Assembly (NCBI GenBank): GCA_035387885.1
Contig: DAOOOW010000002.1
Coordinates: 7,869-71,868, forward strand
Length of the DNA: 64,000 bases
Direction: 5' to 3'
From: a bacterium
GTDB taxonomy: Bacteria > Patescibacteriota > Patescibacteriia > UBA2196
This document shows, piece by piece, positions 4,293-63,300 of this stretch. How positions within the stretch are numbered: the stretch's first letter is position 1; each line of letters opens with the position of its first letter. The translations under genes and the position numbers were made by a program. The notes under the pieces were generated by a model. It had not been told where the DNA came from, searched no databases, and was given only the letters and a program-made list of their open reading frames with translations.

Positions 4293-5318
4293 ATGTCTTC
4301 TCAAACCTCTATTTCTTACACCTCAATTTTCCGCGTGGTGGCCGTACTTTTAGCACTTTTTGTTGCCTATGTAATTCGCGATGTTATTGGGTTATTATTT
4401 GTAGCCATAGTCATTGCGGCGGCTTTGGATCCTTTTGTAGATTATTTGCAAAAACATAAAATTCCGCGCTCAGTTTCTATTTTAGTGATTTTTTTAATTA
4501 CTTTGTCATTATTTAGTTTGGTGATTGTATTACTAATCCCACCCATTTCAGAACAAGTGGGACAATTAGCCAGAAACTTACCGGATTATTATGAAAAAGT
4601 GGCCTTAGGTTTTAATCGTTTAGGTTCTGATGGATCAGGCTCATCAGTCCCAGCAACTCTGCCGGACGCTCTTTCAAGTCTTAGTTCTAATTTGGCTGGT
4701 GCCACTGGTGGAGTGTTTACTACTTTAACAGGAATTTTTGGTGGTTTGATATCTCTGGTTTCTTTATTAGTGATTGTTTTTTATTTAATGGTCCAAGAAG
4801 ATGGTATTAAATATTATGTTAAACAAATTGTTCCAGAAAAATATAAAAAATATTCACTTGATTTATTTGATCGCATTCAAAATAAACTGGGTTTGTGGCT
4901 AAGAGGACAATTAATTTTGTGTTTGATGGTTGGTTTAGCAGTTTATATTGGTTTAACAATTTTAGGAGTTAAATATGCATTACTCTTGGGTTTTGTGGCA
5001 GCTATTACGGAAATAATACCTTATGTTGGTCCATTTATTGGGGCTATTCCAGGTGTCTTTATTGCTTTTTCAGATTCTCTAACGAAAGTTTTGTTGGTAG
5101 TTTTGGTATATTTTATTGTTCAACAACTAGAAAATAGTGTTTTGGTACCGAAAGTAATGCAAAAATCAGTGGGCTTGGATGCTGTGGTGGTTGTGGTGGC
5201 AATTTTAGTTGGTGGTTCACTTGGCGGAATTGTAGGTGCCCTTTTAGCAGTACCAGTGGCAGTCATTGTTGAAGTTGTTGCTGTAGACTTTATTAATAAA
5301 AAATATCCTCAAGCTTAA
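4293..5318 (+). CDS. AI-2E family transporter (PerM/UPF0118)
   Basis: Polytopic membrane protein with the characteristic N-terminal and C-terminal conserved blocks of the AI-2E family. Confidence 0.75.
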   Translation: MSSQTSISYTSIFRVVAVLLALFVAYVIRDVIGLLFVAIVIAAALDPFVDYLQKHKIPRSVSILVIFLITLSLFSLVIVLLIPPISEQVGQLARNLPDYYEKVALGFNRLGSDGSGSSVPATLPDALSSLSSNLAGATGGVFTTLTGIFGGLISLVSLLVIVFYLMVQEDGIKYYVKQIVPEKYKKYSLDLFDRIQNKLGLWLRGQLILCLMVGLAVYIGLTILGVKYALLLGFVAAITEIIPYVGPFIGAIPGVFIAFSDSLTKVLLVVLVYFIVQQLENSVLVPKVMQKSVGLDAVVVVVAILVGGSLGGIVGALLAVPVAVIVEVVAVDFINKKYPQA

Positions 5319-5319
5319 T

Positions 5320-6129
5320 ATGTTATATATAGTCGCTACACCAATTGGCAATTTGGAAGACATAACATTGCGTGCGCTTAGAATTTTTAAGAGTGTTGAT
5401 TATATTTTATGTGAAGATACGCGCGTCACCAAAAAACTTTTAGATCATTATGAAATTTATCCTATCAAATCTTTGGTCAAAGACCAAAGTGCCAAGCAAT
5501 TTGACAGGCTAAATAAAAAATTAATTAGTTATCATCAGCATAGTAGTGACAAAAAGATTCAGGAAATTCTTGAATTAATAAAAAATAATAATGTAGCATT
5601 AGTCACTGATGCTGGTACACCAGGTATTTCTGATCCGGGAAATAAATTGATTGCGCGTTTGGTAGAGACGAGGCATTGCCTCGTTTCTTCTAATACCAAC
5701 ATTGTACCTGTCCCTGGCCCCTCGGCTTTAATTACCGCACTTTCTATTTCTGGTTTGCCAACTGATAAATTTATTTTTAAAGGTTTTGTGCCTCATAAAA
5801 AAGGCCGTGAAACTTTTTTGCGTCAGGTTTTAGATTCAGAAGAGACTGTGGTTTTTTATGAATCCTGTCATCGAATTTTAAAAACACTTTCCGCGCTATG
5901 TTATCCGTCTTTTTGTCATTCCCGCGAAAGCGGGAATCCAGAAAAAGATAACTGGATCCCCGATCAAGTCAGGGATGACAAAAAAGAAAAACACCTTGTT
6001 GTCTGTCGTGAACTAACTAAAAAATTTGAAACTATTTATCGTGGCACTGCTAATGAAATTTTAGAACAAATAAAAAAGGACTTCCCGACGGGAAATCCTA
6101 AAGGCGAATTTGTCGTGATTAGTGGTTAA
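5320..6129 (+). CDS. rsmI: 16S rRNA (cytidine1402-2'-O)-methyltransferase RsmI, carrying a 66-bp in-frame palindromic repeat insertion
   Basis: N-terminus LYIVATPIGNLEDITLRALRIFKSVDYILCEDTR. The insertion at 5915-5980 (TGTCATTCCCGCGAAAGCGGGAATCC...GGATCCCCGATCAAGTCAGGGATGACA) encodes CHSRESGNPEKDNWIPDQVRDD. Confidence 0.8.
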   Translation: MLYIVATPIGNLEDITLRALRIFKSVDYILCEDTRVTKKLLDHYEIYPIKSLVKDQSAKQFDRLNKKLISYHQHSSDKKIQEILELIKNNNVALVTDAGTPGISDPGNKLIARLVETRHCLVSSNTNIVPVPGPSALITALSISGLPTDKFIFKGFVPHKKGRETFLRQVLDSEETVVFYESCHRILKTLSALCYPSFCHSRESGNPEKDNWIPDQVRDDKKEKHLVVCRELTKKFETIYRGTANEILEQIKKDFPTGNPKGEFVVISG

Positions 6130-6377: not shown

Positions 6378-7820
6378 ATGTCTAATAAATTTTATCTTAC
6401 CACAACTCTGCCTTATGTCAATGCTGAACCACACATTGGTTTTGCTTTGGAAATTATTCAAGCCGATGTTCTAGCGCGCTGGCACAGATTTTTAGGTCAG
6501 GAAGTTTTTTTTAATACTGGCACAGATGAACATGGTTTGAAAATTTATCGTAAAGCTTTGGCAGAAAATAAAACTCCCCAAGATTATTGCAATGAATACG
6601 CCACCAAATTTGATAATTTAAAAAGTGCTTTAAATTTAAGTTATAATAATTTTATCCGCACTACTGATGAACACCACACCAAGGCGGCCCAGGAGTTTTG
6701 GCAACGTTGCGAGAAAAATGGTGATATCTACAAAAAAAATTATAGCGTAAAATATTGTGTGGGTTGTGAACTAGAAAAAACCGAATCAGAACTGGTTAAT
6801 AACAAATGTCCAATTCATCCAAATTTAGACTTGGAATTAATTGCTGAAGAAAATTATTTTTTTAGTTTTTCCAAATATCAAGATAAACTTTTAGAATTAT
6901 ATAAAAATAACCCAGAGTTTGTTGTGCCTACCCATCGCTTGCATGAAATAAAAAATTTTGTGGAGGGCGGTTTAGAAGATTTTAGTATTTCTCGATTGAA
7001 AGAAAAAATGCCATGGGGCATTTCTGTGCCAGGCGATGAAAACCATGTGATGTATGTTTGGTTTGACGCTTTGGTTAATTATATTTCCTGTCTGGGTTGG
7101 CCAGATGATGAAAAAAAGTTTAAAGAATTTTGGCCAGGAACGCAAGTGGCAGGCAAAGATAATTTACGTCAACAAACTGCCATGTGGCAAGCCATGTTAA
7201 TGTCTGCTGGTTTACCAAATTCCAAACAAATTTTTATTCATGGTTTTATCACTGCTGGTGGAGAAAAAATGAGTAAATCACTTGGCAATGTGGTTAACCC
7301 TTTTGAGTTAGTTGAAAAATATGGCACTGATGCTATACGTTATTATCTTTTAGCAAAACTTCCACCATATGAAGATGGTGATTATACTGAAGAAAAATTT
7401 AAAGAAGCCTATACTGCTGACCTTTGCAACGGCCTTGGCAACCTTGTCTCGCGATTTTCTAATCTAATCGAAAAGAATAATCTTACTTTGCCATCCCGAC
7501 GAAAGTCGGGATCCAGCAATATTGATGGTAATCAATTGTCAAAAACATTTTCCGACAAATTATCTCACTATAAATTCAATGAAGCCCTAGAAGTTCTCTG
7601 GGCCAAACTTCGTGCTTGTGATGAAACAATTACCAAAACAGAACCTTGGAAAATTAAAGATCAAGAAAAACTCAAAGAAATTTTAGAGCCTATTGCAGAG
7701 GATATTTTAAATGTGGCCATTTTGCTCCAACCCTTTATGCCTAGTACGGCTGAAAAAATAATCAAGACTTTTACAGCAGAAAAAATTGTCAAAAGCGAAC
7801 CATTATTTCCAAGAATATAA
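6378..7820 (+). CDS. metG: Methionine--tRNA ligase (short form)
   Basis: LPYVNAEPHIGF (HIGH-type motif) and KMSKSLGN. A 23-bp hairpin repeat (ATCCCGACGAAAGTCGGGAT) lies in-frame at 7492-7514. Confidence 0.9.
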   Translation: MSNKFYLTTTLPYVNAEPHIGFALEIIQADVLARWHRFLGQEVFFNTGTDEHGLKIYRKALAENKTPQDYCNEYATKFDNLKSALNLSYNNFIRTTDEHHTKAAQEFWQRCEKNGDIYKKNYSVKYCVGCELEKTESELVNNKCPIHPNLDLELIAEENYFFSFSKYQDKLLELYKNNPEFVVPTHRLHEIKNFVEGGLEDFSISRLKEKMPWGISVPGDENHVMYVWFDALVNYISCLGWPDDEKKFKEFWPGTQVAGKDNLRQQTAMWQAMLMSAGLPNSKQIFIHGFITAGGEKMSKSLGNVVNPFELVEKYGTDAIRYYLLAKLPPYEDGDYTEEKFKEAYTADLCNGLGNLVSRFSNLIEKNNLTLPSRRKSGSSNIDGNQLSKTFSDKLSHYKFNEALEVLWAKLRACDETITKTEPWKIKDQEKLKEILEPIAEDILNVAILLQPFMPSTAEKIIKTFTAEKIVKSEPLFPRI

Positions 7821-9443: not shown

Positions 9444-9471
9444 TTCGCTCCAGTCTCCTGACTGGAGCGGC
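9444..9471 (+). repeat. CGCTCCAGTC-TCCT-GACTGGAGCG hairpin element downstream of tatD
   Basis: Perfect 10-bp stem with no T-run, so it is a repeat rather than a classic terminator. Variants occur at 15927-15951, 25327-25421 and in the 70-bp repeat. Confidence 0.5.
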
Positions 9472-9475
9472 AATG

Positions 9476-9546
9476 CTTCCTTAATGTAAAAGATTTTAAT
9501 TACATTATTGAACATAAAGCCTCCAGTCAGGAGACATGGAGGCAAC
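9476..9546 (+). repeat. 70-bp repeat copy 1; its SD-containing hairpin sits immediately upstream of rbfA
   Basis: Near-identical to 29993..30064. Contains the GCCTCCAGTC-AGGA-GACaTGGAGGC hairpin. Confidence 0.7.
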
Positions 9547-15845: not shown

Positions 15846-15959
15846 TTCTTTAATTGTAAACTCAAGCGACTATTTTAGTTGTTAAGAGTTTGGGGATCCT
15901 TTTTTTAATTTTCTAATCATTTTTTCGCTCCAGTCTTTTGATTGGAGCGTTGGTGTATT

Positions 15960-16958
15960 ATGCCAAAATATAAAATTGGAACTAAATACATTGCCAATCG
16001 TTTAGACAAATTTCTTTTTGAAAAAATAAAAAAATTTTCTCGTTCTCAAATTCAAAAGCAAATAAAAGATGGATTAATTTTAGTGAACAATAAAATTATT
16101 CAGCCACATTATTTTTTAAAAGAAAAAGATGTTATAGAAATAAAGAAATCAGAAATTAAGAAATTGGGGGATAGTGGTTCTCTCCAGTCTCCAAACCGGA
16201 GCGACAACGTATTAAACCACCAATCAGGAGACCAGAGGGAACAGCCAATAGAAATAATTTTTGAAACCCCAGATTATTTAGTCATTAATAAACCAGAAGG
16301 TTTATTGGTGCATCCAGGCAATGTTCACTCCGACAAAACTTTGATTGATTGGTTAATTAAAAAATATCCGAGTATTAAAAAAGTTTTTGATAAAGATAAT
16401 AAGATTGGTAAAACCAGACCGGGCATTGTTCATCGACTAGATCGTGATGTTTCTGGTTTAATGGTCATTGCTAAAACTCAGCCCATGTTTGATTATTTAA
16501 AAAATCAGTTTAAAGATAGAGTCATCAAAAAAGAGTATTTAGCTTTGGTTCATGGCGAAGTTTCTTTAGATGTTGGTAGAATCGAGCGTGCACTCATTCG
16601 TTCTAAAAAAACTGGTTTAATAGCTGCGCAAACAGAAGAAAATTCGCTTGGTAAAGAAGCCATTACTGAATTTTCGGTTATACAAAGATATAAAAAATAT
16701 ACACTTTTGCAGATTAAACTTTTAACCGGTCGCACTCATCAAATTCGCGTGCATCTTAAAAGTATTGGTCATAGTATTTTAGGCGATAAACTCTATATAA
16801 CTCGCAATATTCGTCTTAAAGCCAAAAAACCAACAGTAAACAATATTTTTTTATTATCTAAAAAATTGGGTTTTTATGATTTGGAAAATAATTGGCAAGA
16901 ATTCAAAATTAAAGAACCAAAATGGTGGCTTGAATATTTAAAGATTTTAAAATCTTGA
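15960..16958 (+). CDS. RluA-family pseudouridine synthase (RluD-like, S4 domain plus catalytic domain) with an in-frame repeat insertion in the inter-domain linker
   Basis: HRLDRDVSGLMVIAKT catalytic motif. A roughly 60-bp element at 16190-16250 (CTCCAGTCTCC...GGAGACCAGAG) encodes SLQSPNRSDNVLNHQSGDQRE. Confidence 0.75.
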   Translation: MPKYKIGTKYIANRLDKFLFEKIKKFSRSQIQKQIKDGLILVNNKIIQPHYFLKEKDVIEIKKSEIKKLGDSGSLQSPNRSDNVLNHQSGDQREQPIEIIFETPDYLVINKPEGLLVHPGNVHSDKTLIDWLIKKYPSIKKVFDKDNKIGKTRPGIVHRLDRDVSGLMVIAKTQPMFDYLKNQFKDRVIKKEYLALVHGEVSLDVGRIERALIRSKKTGLIAAQTEENSLGKEAITEFSVIQRYKKYTLLQIKLLTGRTHQIRVHLKSIGHSILGDKLYITRNIRLKAKKPTVNNIFLLSKKLGFYDLENNWQEFKIKEPKWWLEYLKILKS

Positions 16959-18430: not shown

Positions 18431-19549
18431 ATGGATCTAATAAAACATCCCAATCCAGAAATTAAAAATGGAGATAACGAGTTATTAGTAGCACATCCTG
18501 ATTTTTTAGAGCAATTAAAAAAATTTCCGTTAAAGATTCAAAGAGATTTTATGGAATTGTCTAGGTGTTCTCAGTTGATGATTTTACAAACAGAGAAAGT
18601 GCGTAAATCAAATAAAGAAACAAATAAAAGTAGAAGTTTTTATATCGAGACAGGAACAGAGGAACAGTGGGAGGAAATTAGTCGAGAAATACGTCATGAA
18701 AAAGGAGATTATTCTGAAGAGGAAATTGAGGAAATGGATTTGTCGGAGATAGAATTGATTATTAGACAAGTTTTACATTCTTTTTTTCGATATTTAAAAG
18801 AAAGGGAAGGAATGGGTGATAGATTTTTCGTCGATCAAGAAGTTGTTAAAGAATTATTGAATTTATTGTGGTCAGGTCGTAAAGAAAATTCTTTCACTTC
18901 ATTTGAACCAGATTATTATAAAGAAATAAGAGCTGAATATGATAGATTGAACGAAGAAAAGAGGAAGCTTGTTGCAGAATTACAAAAAATGGCAACTAAA
19001 AAACTTAATCGGCCGATGAAAAAAAGATTTACAGATTTAAATGCATTATTAGTTCAAGAATTTGGTTATATTTTTCGAGGTGTTGATGGAAGTAGTTATG
19101 AAAGTGAATGGGGTGGTGCTCCTAAGAAAGATCGTTTAAAAATTTTAAAAAGTGAATTGAGTTTACAACAAAGCGAAATAACTCAGCAAAAAACTTTGGC
19201 CTATGCACTTAAATATTTTAGTGCTGAAGAATTTGCAGTTATATTTAACGAGATTTTAGAATCCAGAGCTTCCTTTTTAAGGAAGAAAAATCCAAAATTT
19301 CTTAATGACGCGATTAAGGCAATTGAATCTTGGTTTGTTTTGCATGAAAGTGAAAAACCGCTTAAAGAAAAAAAAGAATTAACTGGCGATAAAAAAGAAA
19401 AAATTGGAAAAATTATAAAACATTTTTGGCGATTATTTAATTCTTATTTACGGCTTTTAAAAGAACCTAGTGCCGAAGAACAACAATTAAGTGGAACAGT
19501 TAGTCAATTAAGTGTTGCGCTTAATCTTCTTAATAAAATAAATTCTTAA
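18431..19549 (+). CDS. Hypothetical protein (372 aa, highly charged, predicted helical)
   Basis: Long ORF with a consistent codon style and no recognisable motif. Lies between tRNA-Val and tRNA-Ala. Confidence 0.5.
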   Translation: MDLIKHPNPEIKNGDNELLVAHPDFLEQLKKFPLKIQRDFMELSRCSQLMILQTEKVRKSNKETNKSRSFYIETGTEEQWEEISREIRHEKGDYSEEEIEEMDLSEIELIIRQVLHSFFRYLKEREGMGDRFFVDQEVVKELLNLLWSGRKENSFTSFEPDYYKEIRAEYDRLNEEKRKLVAELQKMATKKLNRPMKKRFTDLNALLVQEFGYIFRGVDGSSYESEWGGAPKKDRLKILKSELSLQQSEITQQKTLAYALKYFSAEEFAVIFNEILESRASFLRKKNPKFLNDAIKAIESWFVLHESEKPLKEKKELTGDKKEKIGKIIKHFWRLFNSYLRLLKEPSAEEQQLSGTVSQLSVALNLLNKINS

Positions 19550-19906: not shown

Positions 19907-19982
19907 GGGCCCTTAGCTCATTTGGTAGAGCACCTGCTTTGCAAGCAGGGGGTGACCGGTTCGAGCCCGGTAGGGTCCACCA
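19907..19982 (+). tRNA. tRNA-Ala (anticodon TGC), CCA encoded
   Basis: G3:U70 pair in the acceptor GGGCCCT/AGGGTCC, anticodon loop TTTGCAA, 3' CCA. Confidence 0.88.
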
Positions 19983-20023: not shown

Positions 20024-20099
20024 CCTGCTTTGTATGCAGTGGGGGTTAAAAAGACACCCAAGTGTCTTTTTAACGGTTCGAGTCCAGTAGGGTCCACCA
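20024..20099 (+). pseudogene. 3' fragment of a tRNA-Ala-like gene (anticodon arm to CCA end) carrying an inserted hairpin; no 5' half
   Basis: CCTGCTTTGTATGCAG anticodon-arm relic, inserted AAAAAGACACCCAAGTGTCTTTTT hairpin, then GGTTCGAGTCCAGTAGGGTCCACCA matching the Ala T-arm/acceptor/CCA. No matching 5' acceptor strand upstream. Confidence 0.6.
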
Positions 20100-22213: not shown

Positions 22214-23398
22214 ATGTCTGCTAAAGAAAAAACCCTCTTAGTCACTCTTGATTTTCCCCCTCTGTTTGGTGGCGTGGCTAATTATTATTTTGAACGAGTT
22301 AAGATATTGTCTAAAGAGGAGATATTTGTTTTAATGAATCAAATTACGGATTACAAATTACAGATTACAAATTACGATTTTAAAATTTATTATAAATCCT
22401 TTTTTACCAAATTGCTTTGGCCTCATTGGCTTCCCCTAATTTGGCATATTTATAGAATTGTTAAAAAAGAAAAAATAAATAAAATTTGGGTGGGGCAAGT
22501 TTTACCAGTAGGCACGGCGGTTTGGGGGATATCTCGTCTTTTGTCATTCCAGCGATCCGCCAGCTGGCGGATGAAATCCAGTAATTTTTTTAGTCGAAGA
22601 GATCCTTCGACTTCAGCCTCGCATTGCTCGGCTTCCGTTCAGGATGACAAAATACGTCCTTTGGCGTATTTTGTCACTTGTCATGGCAATGATTTGCTGC
22701 GCGCTAAAAATCAGCCACGAAAATTTAAAATTGCTAAACTTATTTTTCGTGACGCTGAATTTGTTGAAGCTAATACTGAATTTACTAAAAATATTTTAAT
22801 TAATGATTTCCAAATTCCAGCAGAAAAAATTAAAATTGTTTATCCGGTTAATACTTTAAAAAAGGAAATGGTTGACGAAAAAAAAGTTAGTGAGTTGCGT
22901 GAAAAGTATAATCTAATTGGCAAAAAAGTTTTATTAACTGTTGGCCGATTAGTGAAATCCAAAGGCATTGATCAAGTTATTTGTGCCTTGCCAAAAGTTT
23001 TGGAAAAAATACCAGATTTAGTATATTTAATTGTTGGTGATGGACCTGATAAAGAAAGATTAACACAGATTGTTGGCGAATTTGCAGGGACAGGTTACGA
23101 CCTGTCCCTGCCAACCCAAAATAATAAAATAATTTTTATTGGCAGTGTGCTAAACGAAGAATTACCAAATTATTATGCTCTGGCCAATGCTTTTATTTTA
23201 ACTCCGCGAAAGAATTATTTTGGAGATACAGAAAGTTTTGGGATAGTTTATTTAGAAGCCAAAGAATTTGATTTGCCTATTGTTGCTGGCAATGTTGGTG
23301 GAGCTAAAGAAATTGCCAAAGCTTACAATCAAATGCATTTGATTGATTCTGAAAATATAGAAGAAGTGGTAGAAAAAATAATTGCCATAATAAAATAA
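22214..23398 (+). CDS. Glycosyltransferase family 4 (GT-B, retaining) with three in-frame repeat insertions
   Basis: C-terminal GT4 blocks (VGRLVKSKGID..., ESFGIVYLEAKEFDLPIVAGNVGG). Insertions: ATTACAAAT repeat 22352-22380 (ITDYKLQITNY), 108-bp palindromic element 22542-22649, and hairpin TGCAGGGACAGGTTACGACCTGTCCCTGCC at 23084-23112. Confidence 0.7.
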   Translation: MSAKEKTLLVTLDFPPLFGGVANYYFERVKILSKEEIFVLMNQITDYKLQITNYDFKIYYKSFFTKLLWPHWLPLIWHIYRIVKKEKINKIWVGQVLPVGTAVWGISRLLSFQRSASWRMKSSNFFSRRDPSTSASHCSASVQDDKIRPLAYFVTCHGNDLLRAKNQPRKFKIAKLIFRDAEFVEANTEFTKNILINDFQIPAEKIKIVYPVNTLKKEMVDEKKVSELREKYNLIGKKVLLTVGRLVKSKGIDQVICALPKVLEKIPDLVYLIVGDGPDKERLTQIVGEFAGTGYDLSLPTQNNKIIFIGSVLNEELPNYYALANAFILTPRKNYFGDTESFGIVYLEAKEFDLPIVAGNVGGAKEIAKAYNQMHLIDSENIEEVVEKIIAIIK

Positions 23399-24811: not shown

Positions 24812-25972
24812 ATGAAAATCCTCTATGCAGGTGGTGGCACCATGGGCTCGGTTAGTCCCTTAATTGCTATCCATCAGAAATTAGTGTCAAAGTATCCAGT
24901 GCCAGAGTATCAATGTTTTTGGTTAGGAACACATAATGGACCTGAAAAAGAAGTGGTTGAAAAGGTTGGTATAAAATTTGAAGTTATTGAAAGCGGCAAA
25001 TTCCGCCGTTATTTTGATTTAAAAAATTTGTTAGATTTTTTTAGAATTATTATTGGTTTTTTTCAAGCTCTTTATTGGTGTTTTAAATTTAAACCAGATA
25101 TAATTTTAACTGCTGGTTCATTTATCTCGGTACCAGTAGCCTATGCGGCTTTTTTCTATGGCGCTTCAGTTTTTGTGCATCAACAAGATATTGAAGTTGG
25201 CTTGGCCAATAAATTAATGGCCCCCGTTGCGAAAAAAATAACTGTAGCTCTAGAAAAATCCCTGCAAGATTTTGATTCCAAAAAAGTTGTTTTGGTCGGC
25301 AATCCTGTGCGTTTAAGTTGTTCTGTTCGCTCCAGTCTCCCTGCCTCGTCGGTAGGCGGGCCGACTGGAATGGAATTGTACATTAATGAGCACAAAGTCT
25401 CCAGCCAGGAGACTGGAGCGAACAATAGTATTAACGATTTTAAGTTTCAAAATAATTTACCAACTGTTTTAATTCTTGGCGGTGGCACAGGTGCCATGAC
25501 TATTAATGAATTAGTTTGGCAGTCGTTGCCAGAATTAATAAAATTTTGCAATATTATTCATATTACCGGTAAAGAAAAAAATTTGAATAATGAATCTGGA
25601 ATTATAAATTATGAAAAAAAATATAAAAATTTTGAATTTTTAGATGAACAAAAAATTTATTCAGCTATGCAGGTAGCCGAAGTGGTGGTTACGCGCGCTG
25701 GTATGTCAGCCTTAACTGAGTTGGCCTATTTTAAAAAACCAACCGTCATTATTCCCATTGCTGATTCGCATCAAGAAAAAAATGCTAAATATTTTGCTAA
25801 CCATGAAGCTGCTATTAATTTATCTCAAAAAAATTTAACTAAGGAAAATTTTGTCGCTCAGATAAAAAATTTATTAAATGATAAAAATAGACAACAAGAA
25901 ATGGGGGAGAATATGCAGCAGATTTTTATTGATTATTCCGGCGAAAAATATTTAGAGGAAATTTTAAAATAA
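24812..25972 (+). CDS. MurG-family glycosyltransferase (GT28) with a 100-bp repeat inserted in-frame at the inter-domain linker
   Basis: N-terminal KILYAGGGTMGSVSPLIAI and C-terminal TRAGMSALTELAYFKKPTVIIP blocks. The inserted peptide is VRSSLPASSVGGPTGMELYINEHKVSSQETGAN. Confidence 0.65.
   Translation: MKILYAGGGTMGSVSPLIAIHQKLVSKYPVPEYQCFWLGTHNGPEKEVVEKVGIKFEVIESGKFRRYFDLKNLLDFFRIIIGFFQALYWCFKFKPDIILTAGSFISVPVAYAAFFYGASVFVHQQDIEVGLANKLMAPVAKKITVALEKSLQDFDSKKVVLVGNPVRLSCSVRSSLPASSVGGPTGMELYINEHKVSSQETGANNSINDFKFQNNLPTVLILGGGTGAMTINELVWQSLPELIKFCNIIHITGKEKNLNNESGIINYEKKYKNFEFLDEQKIYSAMQVAEVVVTRAGMSALTELAYFKKPTVIIPIADSHQEKNAKYFANHEAAINLSQKNLTKENFVAQIKNLLNDKNRQQEMGENMQQIFIDYSGEKYLEEILK
25325..25424 (+). 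repeat. Palindromic element with 15-bp terminal inverted repeats (GTTCGCTCCAGTCTCC ... GGAGACTGGAGCGAAC) inside the MurG-like CDS
   Basis: Perfect terminal inverted repeats flank a roughly 70-bp body containing CTGCCTCGTCGGTAGGCGGG. Confidence 0.7.
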
Positions 25973-25976
25973 TTTT

Positions 25977-27407
25977 ATGTCAGAACAAGAATTACTCAAA
26001 AATTTATTTCAGAAATATTTTGGAATTGCAGCTGTGGAAATTAAAGCTCTAAAAGGCGATGGCTCAGATCGCACGGTTTATAGATTGAAAAATGGCCGAC
26101 AAACTGCCATTGGAGTTTATGGTAAAAATCGTAAAGAAAATGAGGCCTTTATTTCTTTTTCTAAAACGCTCTCGGAACAAAAAATAAAAGTTCCAGAAAT
26201 TTATCTTATAGATCTAGATCATAATATTTATTTAGAAGAAGATTTGGGCGATGAGCTGTTGTTTACTTGGCTAGAAAGAATGGGAATGGAAAAAAAAAGT
26301 TTTAACCCATTAATAGTGGGTAAGTATAAAAAAGTATTAAAAGTTTTACCAATTATCCAAATTGTGGCTGGTAAAAATATAAATTACGGCTTGTGTTATC
26401 AGCACATTGAATTTGCTCATGAATCCATGTTGTGGGATATGCATTATTTTAAGTGGAATTTTTTAAATTTATTTTATAAAGACGTGATTGATAATGAATT
26501 ATTAGAAAAAGATTTTAACGCTTTAGCCGATTTTTTATTGCAAGAAAGAAAAGATTTTTTTGTCTATCGAGATTTTCAGTCCAGAAATATCATGTTGAAA
26601 AATGACGAACCATATTTTATAGATTATCAATCTGGTAGGCGCGGGGCCTTGCAATATGATTTAGTCTCTTTACTTTATGATGCTAAGGCCAAAATTCCAG
26701 AGAGTGTCAGAGAAGAATTGTTGGATTTTTATTTAGAAGAAGTTAATAAAATTATAGCAGTAGACAAAGAGAGGTTTAAAAAATATTTTTATGGTTTTGT
26801 TTTAATTAGAATTATGCAGGCCTTGGGAGCTTATGGTTTTTTGGGTGTGGTTAAAAATAAACCGCAATTTTTAAGTAGTATTCCTTTGGCCTTAGAAAAT
26901 TTAGCCGGCTTAAAAGAAAAATTTTCTTTTTTGGAACAAATGCCGATTTTAAAAAAAATTATTGAAAAAATTTCTCAGGCAAACAATTGGTCAGAAATAG
27001 CCCCTGCTAAAAAAGAATTAGTGGTTAGAATTTATAGTTTTGGTTTTGCATATGATAAGCGGCCCCTTGATAACAGTGGCAATAATGGCGGTTTTATTTT
27101 TGATTGTCGCGGTTTGGCTAATCCTTTTTGGGAAGAAAAATTAAAATCCTTAAGTGGTTTGGATGAGGAAGTTAAAAAATATTTAGATGCCAAAGATAGA
27201 GTCCAAAATTTTTTGTGGCATAGTTATGAATTGATAGATTTAACAATAGATAGTTATCAAACTAAAGGTTACATGGATTTAATGGTTTCTTATGGTTGTA
27301 CTGGCGGGCAGCATCGTTCTGTTTATTGCGCTGAAAAATTAGCAGAGCATTTGAAAAATAGAGGTATTAAAACAGTGGTAGAACATTTAGTTTTAGCAAA
27401 AATATGA
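25977..27407 (+). CDS. Fusion protein: AmgK-like anomeric sugar kinase (APH-fold) N-terminal domain joined to a RapZ C-terminal domain
   Basis: APH catalytic loop VYRDFQSRNIML. The C-terminus carries DCRGLANPFW...LSGLD...GCTGGQHRSVYCAEKLAEHLKNRG, matching the RapZ/YvcJ C-terminal domain. Confidence 0.65.
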   Translation: MSEQELLKNLFQKYFGIAAVEIKALKGDGSDRTVYRLKNGRQTAIGVYGKNRKENEAFISFSKTLSEQKIKVPEIYLIDLDHNIYLEEDLGDELLFTWLERMGMEKKSFNPLIVGKYKKVLKVLPIIQIVAGKNINYGLCYQHIEFAHESMLWDMHYFKWNFLNLFYKDVIDNELLEKDFNALADFLLQERKDFFVYRDFQSRNIMLKNDEPYFIDYQSGRRGALQYDLVSLLYDAKAKIPESVREELLDFYLEEVNKIIAVDKERFKKYFYGFVLIRIMQALGAYGFLGVVKNKPQFLSSIPLALENLAGLKEKFSFLEQMPILKKIIEKISQANNWSEIAPAKKELVVRIYSFGFAYDKRPLDNSGNNGGFIFDCRGLANPFWEEKLKSLSGLDEEVKKYLDAKDRVQNFLWHSYELIDLTIDSYQTKGYMDLMVSYGCTGGQHRSVYCAEKLAEHLKNRGIKTVVEHLVLAKI

Positions 27408-28141
27408 AGGCTTTAATTTTGGCTGCAGGATTGGGAACTCGTTTGCGGCCTTTGACTGAAAAAAATCCCAAAGCCTTGATCAAAGTTGGTAGTTTAACAC
27501 TTCTGGAAAGAGCTGTTTTTTATTTACAAAAAAATGGTATTGAAGATATGGCGATTAATGTGCATTATTTAGCGCCACAAATTGTTGGTTTTATAGCTAA
27601 AAATCCGCAGTTAAACATCAAGTTTATTTTTGAAGAAAAAGAAATTTTGGAGACTGGGGGAGCTATAAAAAACGCGGAAAGTTTTTTAAAAGATTCTGAA
27701 CCGTTTGTAGTTTTTAATGTGGATGTTTTAACTAATGCCAATTTAAATTTAGCTCTGGCATTTCATAAAAAAAATCAGGCTTTGGCGACTCTTTTGGTTA
27801 ATAACAGAAACACAGCAAGACCATTTTTGGTTGATGCCAGTGGAAATTTAGCTGGCCATTTTGATAAAAAAAATAATTTAAAGAGAATAGTTTTAAAAAA
27901 ATATCAGACACCCTTAAGAGAAGTTGGTTTTATGGGCATACATATCATTTCTCCAAAAATTTTTGAGTTAATGCCAGAAGATAATTGTTTTAGTGTTGTG
28001 GACTTGTATTTGGGTCTGCTAGCCAAGGGATATTTAATAAATGTTTTTGAATTTAATAAAGCTTATTGGCAAGATGTGGGCACAGTTGAACGTTGGCAAC
28101 AAGCAGAGAATGATTTAAAAAATGGACTAATTTTAAATTAA
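27404..28141 (+). CDS. Sugar-1-phosphate nucleotidyltransferase, MurU-like (N-acetylmuramate alpha-1-phosphate uridylyltransferase family)
   Basis: MKALILAAGLGTRLRPLTEKNPKALIKV N-terminal NTP-transferase motif. Coupled by a 4-nt overlap to the upstream kinase gene. Confidence 0.65.
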   Translation: MKALILAAGLGTRLRPLTEKNPKALIKVGSLTLLERAVFYLQKNGIEDMAINVHYLAPQIVGFIAKNPQLNIKFIFEEKEILETGGAIKNAESFLKDSEPFVVFNVDVLTNANLNLALAFHKKNQALATLLVNNRNTARPFLVDASGNLAGHFDKKNNLKRIVLKKYQTPLREVGFMGIHIISPKIFELMPEDNCFSVVDLYLGLLAKGYLINVFEFNKAYWQDVGTVERWQQAENDLKNGLILN

Positions 28142-28163: not shown

Positions 28164-28188
28164 AGCCCCTATGTTTAGGGGCTTGTTT
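28164..28188. terminator. Bidirectional terminator between murU-like and prs (convergent)
   Basis: AGCCCCT-ATGTTT-AGGGGCT hairpin with flanking A/T runs. Confidence 0.55.
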
Positions 28189-29941: not shown

Positions 29942-29992
29942 ATCACAACTATGTCATCCCCGGGCGTAGTTTCGTGCCCCCGGGACGTCAAT

Positions 29993-30064
29993 GTTCCTTA
30001 AAGTAAAAAAATTTTAATCACATTATTGAACAAATAGCCTCCAGTCAGGAGACATGGAGGCAAC
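29993..30064 (+). repeat. 70-bp repeat copy 2 (not followed by a + strand gene)
   Basis: Matches 9476..9546, with the same GCCTCCAGTCAGGAGACATGGAGGC hairpin. Preceded by a TGTCATCCCCGGGCG...CCCCCGGGACG palindrome. Confidence 0.7.
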
Positions 30065-38332: not shown

Positions 38333-38468
38333 TCCGTAATCTGTAAAAGGAATAAATTGATTTAAAAATTTTATTACCAATTACTAATTACCAATTACAA
38401 ATTACTTTTTGTTGTTTTATTGCCAAATTTTATATTTATGATAGAATAATTCTAGTTTTTTATTGGGC

Positions 38469-38565
38469 GGAGCGGTAGTTCAGTTGGTTAGAACGCTGCC
38501 CTGTCATGGCATGAGGGTTGAAATCTGCCCCAAGGCAGATTTCAACGGTTCAAGTCCCGTCGTAA
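38469..38565 (+). pseudogene. Variant tRNA-Asp-like 5' portion (acceptor 5' strand to T-arm) with a 31-nt hairpin insertion in the variable region; lacks a 3' acceptor strand
   Basis: Identical to tRNA-Asp through the anticodon loop (CTGTCA), then TGGCATGAGGGTTGAAATCTGCCCCAAGGCAGATTTCA and ACGGTTCAAGTCCC. It is followed by GTCGTAAT, not by CCGCTCC. Confidence 0.55.
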
Positions 38566-38608
38566 TATTTTATTTTATTTTTACATTTTAATAAATGGTT
38601 CCCCAAAC

Positions 38609-38682
38609 GGAGCGGTAGTTCAGTTGGTTAGAACGCTGCCCTGTCACGGCAGAGGTCACGGGTTCGAGTCCCGTCCGCTCCG
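38609..38682 (+). tRNA. tRNA-Asp (anticodon GTC)
   Basis: GGAGCGGTAGTTCAGTTGGTTAGAACGCTGCCCTGTCACGGCAGAGGTCACGGGTTCGAGTCCCGTCCGCTCCG. Clean cloverleaf, no CCA. Confidence 0.85.
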
Positions 38683-38722
38683 TTTGGCGAATAATAAAAG
38701 TAAGATGAAATATTATAAAAAA

Positions 38723-38810
38723 CTGTCATGGCATGAGGGTTGAAATCTGCCCCAAGGCAGATTTCAACGGTTCAAGTCCCTGCCTACCGGCAGGCAGACC
38801 GTCCGCTCCG
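38723..38810 (+). pseudogene. Variant tRNA-Asp-like 3' portion (anticodon loop to 3' acceptor end) duplicating 58 nt of 38501..38558 and carrying an 18-nt palindrome in the T-loop
   Basis: CTGTCATGG...GGTTCAAGTCCC is identical to the upstream pseudo-copy. It then continues with TGCCTACCGGCAGGCAGA and CCGTCCGCTCCG (the correct Asp 3' end). Confidence 0.55.
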
Positions 38811-53017: not shown

Positions 53018-53122
53018 ATTTTTAATTTTAAATTTTAAATTTTAAAATAATTTTCAATTTTAAATTTACAATTAATGTATTCTGTCATTCCAATAAAAGC
53101 GGGAATCCAGAAAATTAACATT

Positions 53123-62376: not shown

Positions 62377-63300
62377 ATGAAAAGATTTTCTTGGCTAGTG
62401 TTAGTTCTTGGTTGTTTAAATTTTAATTGTTCTTGGTTGGAATTTTTTAAACAAACAACAGATAAGGCGGTGATTATCGTTGAAGAAAGTGATTTTGTTC
62501 AAGACAAGAGTAGTCGGCTGGTTTTAATTGGTAATAAATACAAGTTTTTGGAACTTGATTTGAAGATAGAACGCGGAGCACTAGTGTCTGGTTTTGATTT
62601 TATAATAAAAGGCACTGGAGCTGAAGCCGTAGAGTTTGTAACAGTTGGTGGTCAAGTTATTTATCCTCGAAATAATATGGTAGAGTTCAAAAAATTAAAT
62701 ATTAAATCAGGCAAAATTATTTTTTTTATCACCTTTAAACAAGAACCATTATTCTCGGGCACAAATCTCAGATTTTGTTTACAAACGGTATATAAAAAAA
62801 ACACCGCTGGTAAATTAAAAAAATATAATTCTAATATAACTAGCCAGACAATGATTCTGGTAAATGGTTTTCCGCTTATTGAATCAGAAAAAAATTTTTC
62901 TAAAATTGATGCCGGTAAACTGAAAACAGACGAGTTGGTTGTCGGAGTTAATGAAAAAGGTGGGGAGATATATTTAAAAGAAATAATTTGGGCATGTAAA
63001 GTTACGGGAGCCGAGTTGCTTGATGTTTTTTTATCAGATGGTTTTTCTAAGATTAGAGATGAGCGTTATCATAAAAATCAAGCCTCGGCAGATACTTTTA
63101 GATTTAATTTTAATCTGGCACAAAGACAAATGGTTATTTGGCCAAGACAAGTTAAAAAATTTTATTTAGAAATTAAAATTGATTGGTATAATAAAGTTGA
63201 AATAAAAACCCAACCAGTGGAATTGATTTGGAGTGATGGCAGAAAAGAATTTAGTCAAAAAAATTTGGCTAAAGAGCAAATTATTATTTTTAATTGGTGA
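62377..63300 (+). CDS. Hypothetical secreted/lipoprotein
   Basis: Signal peptide with LGC lipobox-like sequence. No recognisable domain. Confidence 0.45.
   Translation: MKRFSWLVLVLGCLNFNCSWLEFFKQTTDKAVIIVEESDFVQDKSSRLVLIGNKYKFLELDLKIERGALVSGFDFIIKGTGAEAVEFVTVGGQVIYPRNNMVEFKKLNIKSGKIIFFITFKQEPLFSGTNLRFCLQTVYKKNTAGKLKKYNSNITSQTMILVNGFPLIESEKNFSKIDAGKLKTDELVVGVNEKGGEIYLKEIIWACKVTGAELLDVFLSDGFSKIRDERYHKNQASADTFRFNFNLAQRQMVIWPRQVKKFYLEIKIDWYNKVEIKTQPVELIWSDGRKEFSQKNLAKEQIIIFNW

Follow-up and report, generated by a model that had tools for sequence, protein, structure and literature searches.

The AmgK-MurU peptidoglycan salvage bypass is found in Pseudomonas putida and Pseudomonas aeruginosa, Legionella, Caulobacter and Tannerella forsythia, and the AmgK of T. 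forsythia has been functionally validated. The AmgK/MurU pairs of P. putida and T. forsythia were assayed by rescue of fosfomycin-treated E. coli given MurNAc. The RapZ/YvcJ proteins are conserved across bacteria, and what they do is settled only for the enterobacterial GlmY/GlmZ circuit. The APH kinase fold is shared by the LicA/LicC choline pathway, NahK and MTR kinase, none of which is known to us with a RapZ C-terminal domain (RapZ_C). For E. coli RapZ, an RNase E adaptor and GlcN6P sensor, the role of a YVFD strand in the dimer of the C-terminal domain (CTD) has been described (PMC5737377) and the residues of the ligand pocket, H190, T248, G249, H252 and R253 plus C247, have been defined (PMC5737377, PMC9841335). 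The Gram-positive YvcJ needs the Walker-A lysine in its N-terminal P-loop domain to bind UDP-GlcNAc (PMC7525490, PMC10986989). In Firmicutes the yvcJ gene lies directly upstream of glmR and overlaps it; GlmR is a GlcNAc-1-P uridylyltransferase, which makes UDP-amino-sugar from sugar-1-phosphate and UTP (PMC10986989, PMC10128056).

Here we describe a locus in a 64-kb stretch of DNA (the window) from an ultra-small, uncultured patescibacterium, in which an AmgK-like kinase is fused to a RapZ_C domain and coupled to a MurU-like transferase. With a probability of roughly 60% we read it as an amino-sugar salvage pair of the AmgK/MurU type with an accessory RapZ_C module that binds a phosphosugar, where we infer both the substrate and the role of RapZ_C.

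Gene cluster and authenticity of the fusion

The cluster consists of the following elements:

24812..25972, + strand: murG, lipid II GlcNAc transferase, at the head of the apparent operon, with its stop 4 nt before the ATG of the fusion
25977..27407, + strand: kinase-RapZ_C fusion ORF, 476 aa, ATG start, no internal stops
27404-28141, + strand: MurU-like sugar-1-phosphate nucleotidyltransferase, translationally coupled to the fusion by a 4-nt ATGA overlap
28164..28183, no strand: GC-rich hairpin and T-run where the murU-like gene and prs converge, from a consensus scan only

The hairpin is likely to be the end of the operon. The murG product matched the Pfam GT28 N-terminal (3-144) and C-terminal (218-368) domains, with an in-frame insert of ~70 aa between them, and scored 245.1 bits with TIGR01133 (cutoff 250.25). 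The window genes that were scanned proved to be housekeeping genes, with no murA/B or glmS/M/U among them. The cluster adjoins a polysaccharide flippase and GT1/GT2 glycosyltransferases.

Both halves of the fusion were significant in the Pfam profile search: APH (PF01636, residues 22-253, E 1.2e-9) and the RapZ C-terminal domain (PF22740, residues 349-471, E 1.2e-33). The two-domain architecture of the first-pass annotation was thereby borne out, including the C-terminal similarity (116 bits against a cutoff of 27). In the NCBIfam scan of the fusion two AmgK models were the sole real matches besides the RapZ model. We located the motifs YRDFQSRN (aa 197-204), IDYQ (215-218), FIFD (373-376), NPFW (382-385) and CTGGQHRS (441-448), and the AF2 model of the full fusion had a mean pLDDT of 91.1 and a pTM of 0.73. 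The two domains are joined by one further element:

26929..27011, + strand: helical linker between the domains, aa 318-345 (AF2 helices 317-321, 323-334 and 338-341)

Across residues 331-350 of this region the pLDDT drops to 67-75, and P323, L325 and L348 are near-invariant in the homologue alignment. The first-pass annotation had raised a possible frameshift or assembly join near residue 330. That two genes were merged by such an artefact is next to impossible, and we rule it out: the identical protein occurs on three contigs from independent sources, homologues of the same length were found at 84%, 75%, 73% and 70% identity, the linker residues are conserved, and hundreds of independent full-length clusters span several phyla. 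Loci with kinase and RapZ_C as separate genes do occur, with the stop and start falling in the linker region. However, these split versions carry their own stop, Shine-Dalgarno sequence and ATG and therefore represent a different, genuine arrangement.

Kinase half and partner transferase

The features of the kinase half are:

25977..26981, + strand: AmgK-like APH-fold kinase domain, aa 1-335, from Pfam, NCBIfam and Foldseek
26565..26588, + strand: catalytic loop Y-R-D199-F-Q-S-R-N204 (Brenner motif), aligned with HRDYHCRN of Shewanella AmgK
26619..26630, + strand: Mg-binding I-D216-Y-Q motif (DFG equivalent), aligned with IDFQ of Shewanella AmgK

AmgK was the only curated family that matched the full length of the kinase half, with model NF045759 spanning residues 1-317 (E 7.8e-15). 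Identity to the syntenic Shewanella AmgK is 27% (E 8e-21), and across 60 homologues R198, D199, Q201, S202, R203 and N204 of the catalytic loop as well as D216, Y217 and Q218 are invariant. The AmgK-like assignment of the first-pass annotation, made from the catalytic loop, was thus upheld. The scores of 54.8 and 42.5 bits are below the respective equivalog cutoffs of 550 (NF045759) and 500 (NF045698), which are very strict, as the syntenic Shewanella AmgK with 249 bits falls short too. Using the AF2 model, Foldseek gave 3csv as best match (TM 0.77) followed by many further APH-fold kinases, LicA and MtnK among them.

The downstream gene matched NTP_transferase in Pfam (E 8e-23), and its best NCBIfam model was MurU NF045761 with 124 bits, below the cutoff of 250. 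The closest PDB entries were the MurU structures 8hhd (4e-20) and 4y7t (5.6e-18), and the protein is 31% identical to a Shewanella MurU that passes the NCBIfam cutoff. The first reading had named a MurU-like partner joined by a 4-nt overlap; we confirmed the ATGA at 27404 and found a MurU-like gene downstream of the kinase in all 22 loci with downstream DNA, covering at least five phyla, and in further contexts too. The gene order of kinase then transferase supports the pair, being that of canonical amgK-murU. The pair resembles AmgK-MurU in that a kinase of APH fold precedes a uridylyltransferase of NTP_transferase fold, the catalytic motifs are AmgK-like, and no curated family or solved structure is closer to the partner than MurU. 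The window pair differs in its low identity and scores under the curated cutoffs and in the RapZ_C domain, which canonical AmgK (about 340 aa) does not have. The range of the family differs too, taking in Patescibacteria, the FCB group and further phyla from which the route is unreported; the bypass has been described as known from few species only (PMC13046382).

With only 27% identity to AmgK a different sugar substrate is possible. It is nevertheless quite unlikely that the pair activates something other than MurNAc or GlcNAc, for instance a hexosamine or sugar of some other kind that goes into surface glycans, or the substrate of a LicA/LicC-like choline pathway, with RapZ_C tying the pathway to amino-sugar status only indirectly. 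Such a reading would fit the scores far under the AmgK and MurU cutoffs, the flippase and glycosyltransferases beside the cluster, LicA as a structural neighbour, and LicC, which has an N-terminal nucleotide-binding motif in common with the window transferase. It would also fit the neighbourhoods in other phyla: outside Patescibacteria we found no consistently adjacent peptidoglycan or recycling genes and no other conserved neighbours. On the other hand, AmgK and MurU were the top matches in every member tested, and LicA/LicC, NahK and MTR kinase matched more weakly in sequence, profile and structure. The MurU structures cover the full length of the transferase, whereas LicC matches residues 1-79 only; the kinase half has no match to Pfam Choline_kinase and its catalytic-core motifs are AmgK-like. 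Finally, murG adjoins the fusion in Patescibacteria, lying upstream in 6/6 loci of the patescibacterial type and in 0 elsewhere. The MurG neighbour noticed in the first reading is present in the window, but this adjacency is specific to Patescibacteria and does not characterise the family.

Distribution and gene layouts

The fusion family comprises 751 representative clusters at 50% identity (E ≤ 1e-30) and thousands of clusters at 90%, with members in Patescibacteria, Bacteroidota, Ignavibacteriota, Marinimicrobia, KSB1 and others. The domain combination had been called atypical, which is correct in the sense of non-canonical but not in the sense of rare. We observed four layouts, in all of which the module order is kinase, RapZ_C, transferase. 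In the first, as in the window, kinase and RapZ_C are fused and the transferase is separate. The second is an APH-RapZ_C-NTP_transferase triple fusion, with eight independent cases. In the third, found at five loci, the three modules are encoded by separate, translationally coupled genes, with RapZ_C standing alone at 134-148 aa, for example:

5050-5454 of locus L028: stand-alone RapZ_C
5011-5421 of locus L031: stand-alone RapZ_C

In the fourth, which occurs in at least one lineage, kinase and transferase are present with RapZ_C not nearby, an observation in favour of RapZ_C as an accessory module. The strongest evidence, missed in the first pass, is the occurrence of RapZ_C as a separate middle gene and as the middle domain of triple fusions. 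A frameshift suspected in locus L015 was rejected, as reading the DNA revealed a genuine split gene with ATGAGTAA overlap.

This three-part system of kinase, RapZ_C and uridylyltransferase is large, widespread and undescribed. Our literature search returned no publication on the kinase-RapZ_C fusion, no report of AmgK/MurU in CPR and no paper that combines Tannerella and RapZ; a Saccharibacteria genetics paper contained nothing on GlcNAc or MurNAc. Among the top 120 matches of a database search with a Bacteroidaceae member, neither Tannerella nor gut Bacteroides was named.

RapZ_C module

The C-terminal part of the fusion contains:

27012..27404, + strand: RapZ C-terminal domain, aa 346-476, from PF22740, the PDB match and the CTD-only model
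27093..27104, + strand: F-I-F-D376 beta-strand, by alignment the YVFD 179-182 CTD-dimer strand of E. coli RapZ
27297..27320, + strand: phosphate-binding loop C441-T-G-G-Q-H446-R447-S448 (E. coli C247-S254), invariant in 60/60 and 23/23 homologues

The domain is homologous to and nearly superposable on that of E. coli RapZ. It matched PDB 5o5s with E 2.2e-22, and the CTD-only model (pLDDT 94.5) aligned to the same entry with TM 0.91 and rmsd 1.6 Å; overall the model lies 1.3-1.6 Å from the E. coli RapZ-CTD at a sequence identity of 36%. In E. coli numbering, the 23 fusions have C247, T248, G249, G250, H252, R253, S254, F181, D182 and R184 invariant, with F/Y at 179 and V/I at 180, so the C247-S254 loop and the YVFD-type dimer strand are kept; N188 and P189 are kept as well. 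D365, D376, R378, N382 and H470 of the fusion are also invariant among homologues. The fusions differ from E. coli RapZ by a conserved G-G-G-F insertion ahead of the dimer strand and at two positions: pocket residue H190 gives way to F in the clade of the window and to G in the others, and in place of W191 most members have R. Judged by these replacements, the ligand is probably not bound in the way GlcN6P is in E. coli RapZ.

The determinants of RNA binding are gone. Position 270 holds I/V/L instead of K, the K281-R282-K283 tail is missing or unconserved and K251 is mostly Q. Together with the invariant phosphate loop this residue pattern supports the earlier suggestion that RapZ_C would here be a metabolite-binding rather than an RNA-binding module. 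That the fusion is a genuine RNase adaptor RapZ acting on sRNA and glmS is accordingly a highly improbable explanation of the 36% identity and of the RapZ name that PGAP gives to several members. Besides the lost lysines, the N-terminal half is APH and no RapZ-type Walker A was found anywhere in the window; the NCBIfam RapZ model matched at positions 156-275 only, with 114 bits against a cutoff of 244; an Rfam scan of the window returned tRNAs only and no match to GlmY/GlmZ; and the invariant genomic partner is a nucleotidyltransferase. A true RapZ identity is ruled out on these defining features, and as both the P-loop domain and the RNA-binding residues are missing, the NCBI name 'RNase adapter RapZ' is wrong.

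The first-pass annotation had also carried over UDP-GlcNAc binding from the Gram-positive homologues. This does not hold: binding there needs the Walker-A lysine of the N-domain, which is missing here, and with no P-loop domain in the fusion the property is not transferable to the C-domain. We had also considered GlmR as the sole binder of UDP-GlcNAc, which is wrong because YvcJ binds it too through that lysine. YvcJ-GlmR nevertheless resembles the window pair: a kinase-like nucleotide-binding domain and RapZ_C share one protein, the gene lies directly upstream of a uridylyltransferase gene and overlaps it, and YvcJ likewise misses the RNA-binding consensus of RapZ. However, neither the nucleotide-binding domains (P-loop in YvcJ, APH in the fusion) nor the uridylyltransferases (GlmR/YvcK family and NTP_transferase) are homologous, and sugar-kinase activity has not been demonstrated for YvcJ. 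The likeness is by analogy in how the parts are organised; the two do not form one family.

RapZ_C could also be catalytic instead of a sensor, its Cys-x5-Arg-Ser loop performing a step on an amino-sugar phosphate. This step might be the dephosphorylation of MurNAc-6-P or GlcNAc-6-P to feed the kinase (MupP-like) or some other conversion that falls between the reactions of kinase and transferase. The loop sits between strand 434-441 and helix 447-461, which fits the C-x5-R-(S/T) phosphatase arrangement, and RapZ_C equals the kinase domain in its number of invariant polar residues, the loop itself and D365, D376, R378, N382 and H470 being invariant. In E. coli the RapZ C247S variant is inactive and the authors suggest that the -SH group may be catalytic; in addition, after soaking with GlcN6P a crystal of the CTD contained a 'chemically transformed product' (PMC9841335). 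These invariant residues and the published hints of C247 chemistry speak more for catalysis than for pure regulation. Phosphatase activity has moreover been reported for YvcJ and Xanthomonas HpaP, and RapZ_C always takes the place between kinase and transferase, at some loci as a protein of its own. Still, we regard catalysis as distinctly doubtful. The Foldseek search with the CTD model was significant only to RapZ (next E 0.39, no PTP or ArsC entries), so that the motif of a PTP-like phosphatase is there and its fold is unsupported. In the papers covered, the YvcJ and HpaP activities are not mapped to the C-domain; at least one lineage has the kinase and transferase with RapZ_C not nearby, and an anomeric kinase followed by a uridylyltransferase requires no step between.

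Proposed function and significance

Under the preferred reading of a salvage pair with an accessory RapZ_C, the kinase half would phosphorylate MurNAc and/or GlcNAc with ATP to the sugar-1-phosphate, as an AmgK-type anomeric kinase does; both substrate and regiochemistry are here predicted from the AmgK likeness. The coupled MurU-like uridylyltransferase would then convert the salvaged amino sugar to a UDP-sugar that feeds peptidoglycan synthesis; in Patescibacteria the pair is predicted to be co-transcribed with murG. RapZ_C has retained the phosphate-binding loop and the homodimerisation strand but none of the RNA-binding determinants of RapZ, and most likely binds a phosphorylated amino sugar or a sugar-phosphate intermediate. 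In its ligand-bound form it may tune the kinase-transferase pair, or else it may physically couple both enzymes. Feedback regulation of amino-sugar salvage through RapZ_C, as put forward in the first-pass annotation, is plausible.

The system may show the role of RapZ domains before they became RNA adaptors. More tentatively, and on balance unlikely, RapZ_C could be an ancient autonomous module for handling amino-sugar phosphates, possibly a Cys/His/Arg-loop enzyme, that originally served in routes from amino sugar via sugar-1-phosphate to UDP-sugar, with the enterobacterial RNA-adaptor role a late add-on. It would then, as an equally tentative part of that idea, have been joined independently with two unrelated kinase-type domains (APH, and the P-loop in RapZ/YvcJ) and two unrelated uridylyltransferases (MurU-like and GlmR). 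If this were true, the system, whether fused, split or triple-fused, would serve as the simplest model in which to find the long-sought core activity of RapZ/YvcJ, and YvcJ would be predicted to act on, or pass, a sugar phosphate for GlmR.

With this family, an AmgK/MurU-like route would reach into Patescibacteria and a large part of the FCB group, with relevance for the supply of cell-wall precursors in reduced, host-dependent bacteria, for fosfomycin insensitivity and for metabolic cell-wall labelling tools. A RapZ_C with neither RNA-binding residues nor P-loop, linked genetically to kinase and uridylyltransferase and at times a stand-alone protein of 134 aa, also offers a clean system to study ligand and chemistry. 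Many family members are now annotated as 'RNase adapter RapZ' and are misnamed by tests of the defining features.

The fusion gene and its neighbours

The first-pass annotation had described an AmgK-like kinase joined to RapZ's C-terminal domain (RapZ_C). We recovered the open reading frame at the same coordinates, and when both halves were searched by profile each match was significant:

25977-27407, + strand: kinase-RapZ_C fusion, 476 aa
residues 22-253: APH domain, PF01636, E 1.2e-9
residues 349-471: RapZ C-terminal domain, PF22740, E 1.2e-33

The RapZ equivalog model of NCBIfam aligned solely via its positions 156-275 (114 bits, cutoff 244), and the only further real NCBIfam matches were two AmgK models, one of them spanning residues 1-317 (E 7.8e-15). 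In a search of solved structures, E. coli RapZ (5o5s, E 2e-22) was matched by the last 130 residues, and 3csv, a structural-genomics 'aminoglycoside phosphotransferase', by the N-terminal half. The gene junctions also agreed with the first description: 4 nt separate the murG stop from the fusion ATG, and the fusion and the MurU-like gene share an ATGA overlap. A terminator-like hairpin occurs only downstream of the MurU-like gene. For the full-length protein AlphaFold gave a confident model (pLDDT 91.1, pTM 0.73) in which the interdomain linker is helical; the linker is partly conserved. When modelled by itself, the C-terminal domain (CTD; pLDDT 94.5, pTM 0.90) superposes on its E. coli RapZ counterpart at 1.3-1.6 Å, with a TM of up to 0.91 and 36% identity.

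Distribution and module layouts

An assembly artefact is ruled out, as the identical protein was present on three contigs from independent sources. Same-length homologues were found at 84%, 75%, 73% and 70% identity. Both Pfam domains were present, at ∼475 aa, in 120/120 best matches of a word-indexed search and in all of the 120 matches listed when a Bacteroidaceae member served as query in a second search. Of 1.84 billion cluster representatives scanned exhaustively with HMMER, 751 from across phyla reached E <= 1e-30, so that the architecture, earlier called atypical, is so relative to textbook RapZ only and is not rare. Carriers include Patescibacteria (Kuenenbacteria-type), Bacteroidota, Ignavibacteriota, Marinimicrobia, KSB1, 'Vecturithrix', Bdellovibrionales MAGs and cultured isolates such as Mangrovibacterium marinum. 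Conservation is high: Bacteroidaceae members share 57-61% identity with those of Marinimicrobia or Ignavibacteriales. In one representative (P0196, 718 aa) the kinase-RapZ_C unit is preceded by a 3'-5' exonuclease domain (PF01612), which could reflect a merged gene call or an additional fusion.

We surveyed the gene context of 25 genome loci with the fusion, three of them cut by contig ends. A counterpart of the window's MurU-like gene lies directly downstream in 22/22 loci with enough downstream DNA; murG lies upstream only in the six Patescibacteria-type loci, and the remaining flanking genes vary by phylum. Eight of the ten long representatives (712-816 aa) from the exhaustive search are triple fusions, APH-RapZ_C-NTP_transferase, and one of these was verified to be a single called gene. 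On four contigs of independent assemblies the modules are encoded by three separate genes (kinase 337-344 aa, stand-alone RapZ_C 134-136 aa, transferase 243-248 aa), joined by 4-nt overlaps or by a stop followed by GGAG and ATG. A Cytophagia locus is a fifth such case; its split genes overlap at ATGAGTAA, and a frameshift reading was dropped. The order kinase, RapZ_C, transferase is constant. This constancy is strong comparative evidence for RapZ_C as an autonomous module functionally tied to kinase and transferase. RapZ_C is probably accessory, since one lineage has kinase and transferase with no RapZ_C within 4 kb.

In KSB1 contigs (L033, 7360-7983; L034, 5220-5843) the gene immediately upstream of the fusion encodes a NUDIX hydrolase, and such a gene also lies near the split system in locus L031 (7492-8109). 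NUDIX enzymes hydrolyse nucleotide sugars, and in some lineages this one could therefore act as an additional functional partner.

Comparison with AmgK and MurU

The kinase half aligns with the canonical, syntenic Shewanella AmgK over 291 residues (27% identity, E 8e-21) and shares its idiosyncratic motifs GD(A/G)SxR, (H/Y)RD(Y/F)xxRNIMLKNDE, ID(F/Y)Q and YD(V/L)VSLL. Residues R198, D199, Q201, S202, R203, N204, D216, Y217 and Q218 are invariant across 60 family members. Over its full length the transferase shares 31% identity with Shewanella MurU, a protein that scores above the MurU cutoff. Its closest solved structures are P. aeruginosa and P. putida MurU, and a match to LicC is limited to the first 79 residues. 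Neither kinase nor transferase attains its NCBIfam equivalog cutoff; Shewanella AmgK likewise falls below that for AmgK (249 vs 550), so this miss says little. That the pair activates a different substrate is unlikely.

We favour an AmgK/MurU-type route in which salvaged MurNAc and/or GlcNAc would receive a phosphate at C1 and the sugar-1-phosphate would then be uridylylated, supplying peptidoglycan synthesis. RapZ_C most probably contributes phosphosugar binding and dimerisation, and would act as a sensor or as an adaptor linking kinase and transferase. We give this reading a probability of about 0.6. In Patescibacteria the pair shares one apparent operon with murG, and the donor substrate of MurG is UDP-GlcNAc.

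RapZ features kept and lost

We aligned 23 fusions to E. coli RapZ, with residue roles taken from PMC5737377, PMC7073468 and PMC9841335. The loop C247-T-G-G-x-H-R-S254 and residues F181, D182, R184, N188 and P189 are invariant, and the CTD-dimerisation strand is kept as (F/Y)(V/I)FD, preceded by a conserved G-G-G-F insertion. H190 is replaced by G in 18 sequences and by F in the window's clade, and W191 is R (18) or W. The P-loop domain is absent, a hydrophobic residue stands in place of K270, the K281-R282-K283 tail has been lost and Q mostly replaces K251. The protein thus lacks what defines an RNase adaptor, and the name 'RNase adapter RapZ', which members carry in databases beside 'phosphotransferase' and 'RapZ C-terminal domain-containing protein', is a misnomer.

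A serious, if improbable, rival is that RapZ_C is itself catalytic. The invariant Cys-x5-Arg-Ser loop lies between strand and helix; E. coli C247S is inactive, its authors suggesting a catalytic thiol, and a GlcN6P-soaked CTD crystal held a 'chemically transformed product' (PMC9841335). YvcJ and HpaP have also been reported with phosphatase activity. However, Foldseek found no PTP/ArsC-like relative, and one lineage dispenses with the module.

UDP-GlcNAc binding in Gram-positive homologues had been attributed to the C-domain. YvcJ does bind it, but binding is abolished in the N-terminal Walker-A mutants K22A/K18A (PMC7525490, PMC10986989), and that domain is absent from the fusion. The established ligand of the C-domain alone is GlcN6P in E. 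coli (KD ∼10 nM; PMC7073468).

In Firmicutes yvcJ (P-loop domain plus RapZ_C) overlaps glmR (PMC10986989), whose product converts GlcNAc-1-P and UTP to UDP-GlcNAc (PMC10128056). Both systems thus combine a nucleotide-binding kinase-type domain and RapZ_C with an overlapping UDP-amino-sugar-forming transferase, whereas kinase-type domains and transferases are non-homologous and RapZ_C is the sole common element. This gene organisation suggests that the ancestral job of RapZ_C may have been in amino-sugar activation, with RNA binding arising later.

As a sequence the protein is not new, since databases already show its architecture. Our literature search found no publication on the kinase-RapZ_C fusion or the three-module system, and in 2026 the AmgK/MurU route was still listed for few species (PMC13046382). 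The variant and its implications appear undescribed; the main caveat is whether the functionally validated T. forsythia AmgK belongs to this family.

Other features of the window

ORFs 18431-19549 (372 aa) and 62377-63300 (307 aa) had no Pfam match at E <= 1e-5. A GC-rich palindromic mini-element with core GCTCCAGTCTCCTGACTGGAGC is dispersed in this window of 32% GC (25327-25425 inside murG, 9447-9468, 15927-15948, 16169-16203; related 9468-9546, 29986-30064), with three close copies against 0 expected by chance. In murG, one pair of copies brackets an in-frame insert of ∼100 nt (GC 0.53, gene 0.34) that lies between the two GT28 domains, which resembles Rickettsia-type palindromic elements inserting into coding sequence. 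A second family, TTTTGTCATTCC...GGAATCCAG / GATCC...GGATGACAA, has two in-frame copies (∼22545-22660) inside the GT1 glycosyltransferase gene 22214-23398, where it encodes the Ser/Arg-rich peptide SFQRSASWRMKSSNFFSRRDPSTSASHCSASVQDDK (GC 0.48 vs 0.34). Related copies lie at 483-526, 5911-5995, 7486-7520, 53080-53114 and 56475-56512/56997-57034; these other copies are intergenic, and two of them (56475/56997) form a perfect inverted pair of 38 nt with 484 nt between them.

tRNA-like sequences cluster at 38468-38780 and occur at 20029-20086. A 58-nt exact repeat (38501-38558 = 38723-38780) holds the hairpin GGGTTGAAATCTGCC-CCAA-GGCAGATTTCAAC just ahead of the T-arm-like GGTTCAAGTCC, and a weak tRNA call (38469-38532, 31.6 bits) adjoins a strong one (38609-38682). 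A similar hairpin lies 3' of the tRNA at 19907-19979. The cluster may consist of tRNA fragments, or of tRNA genes into which a hairpin has been inserted.
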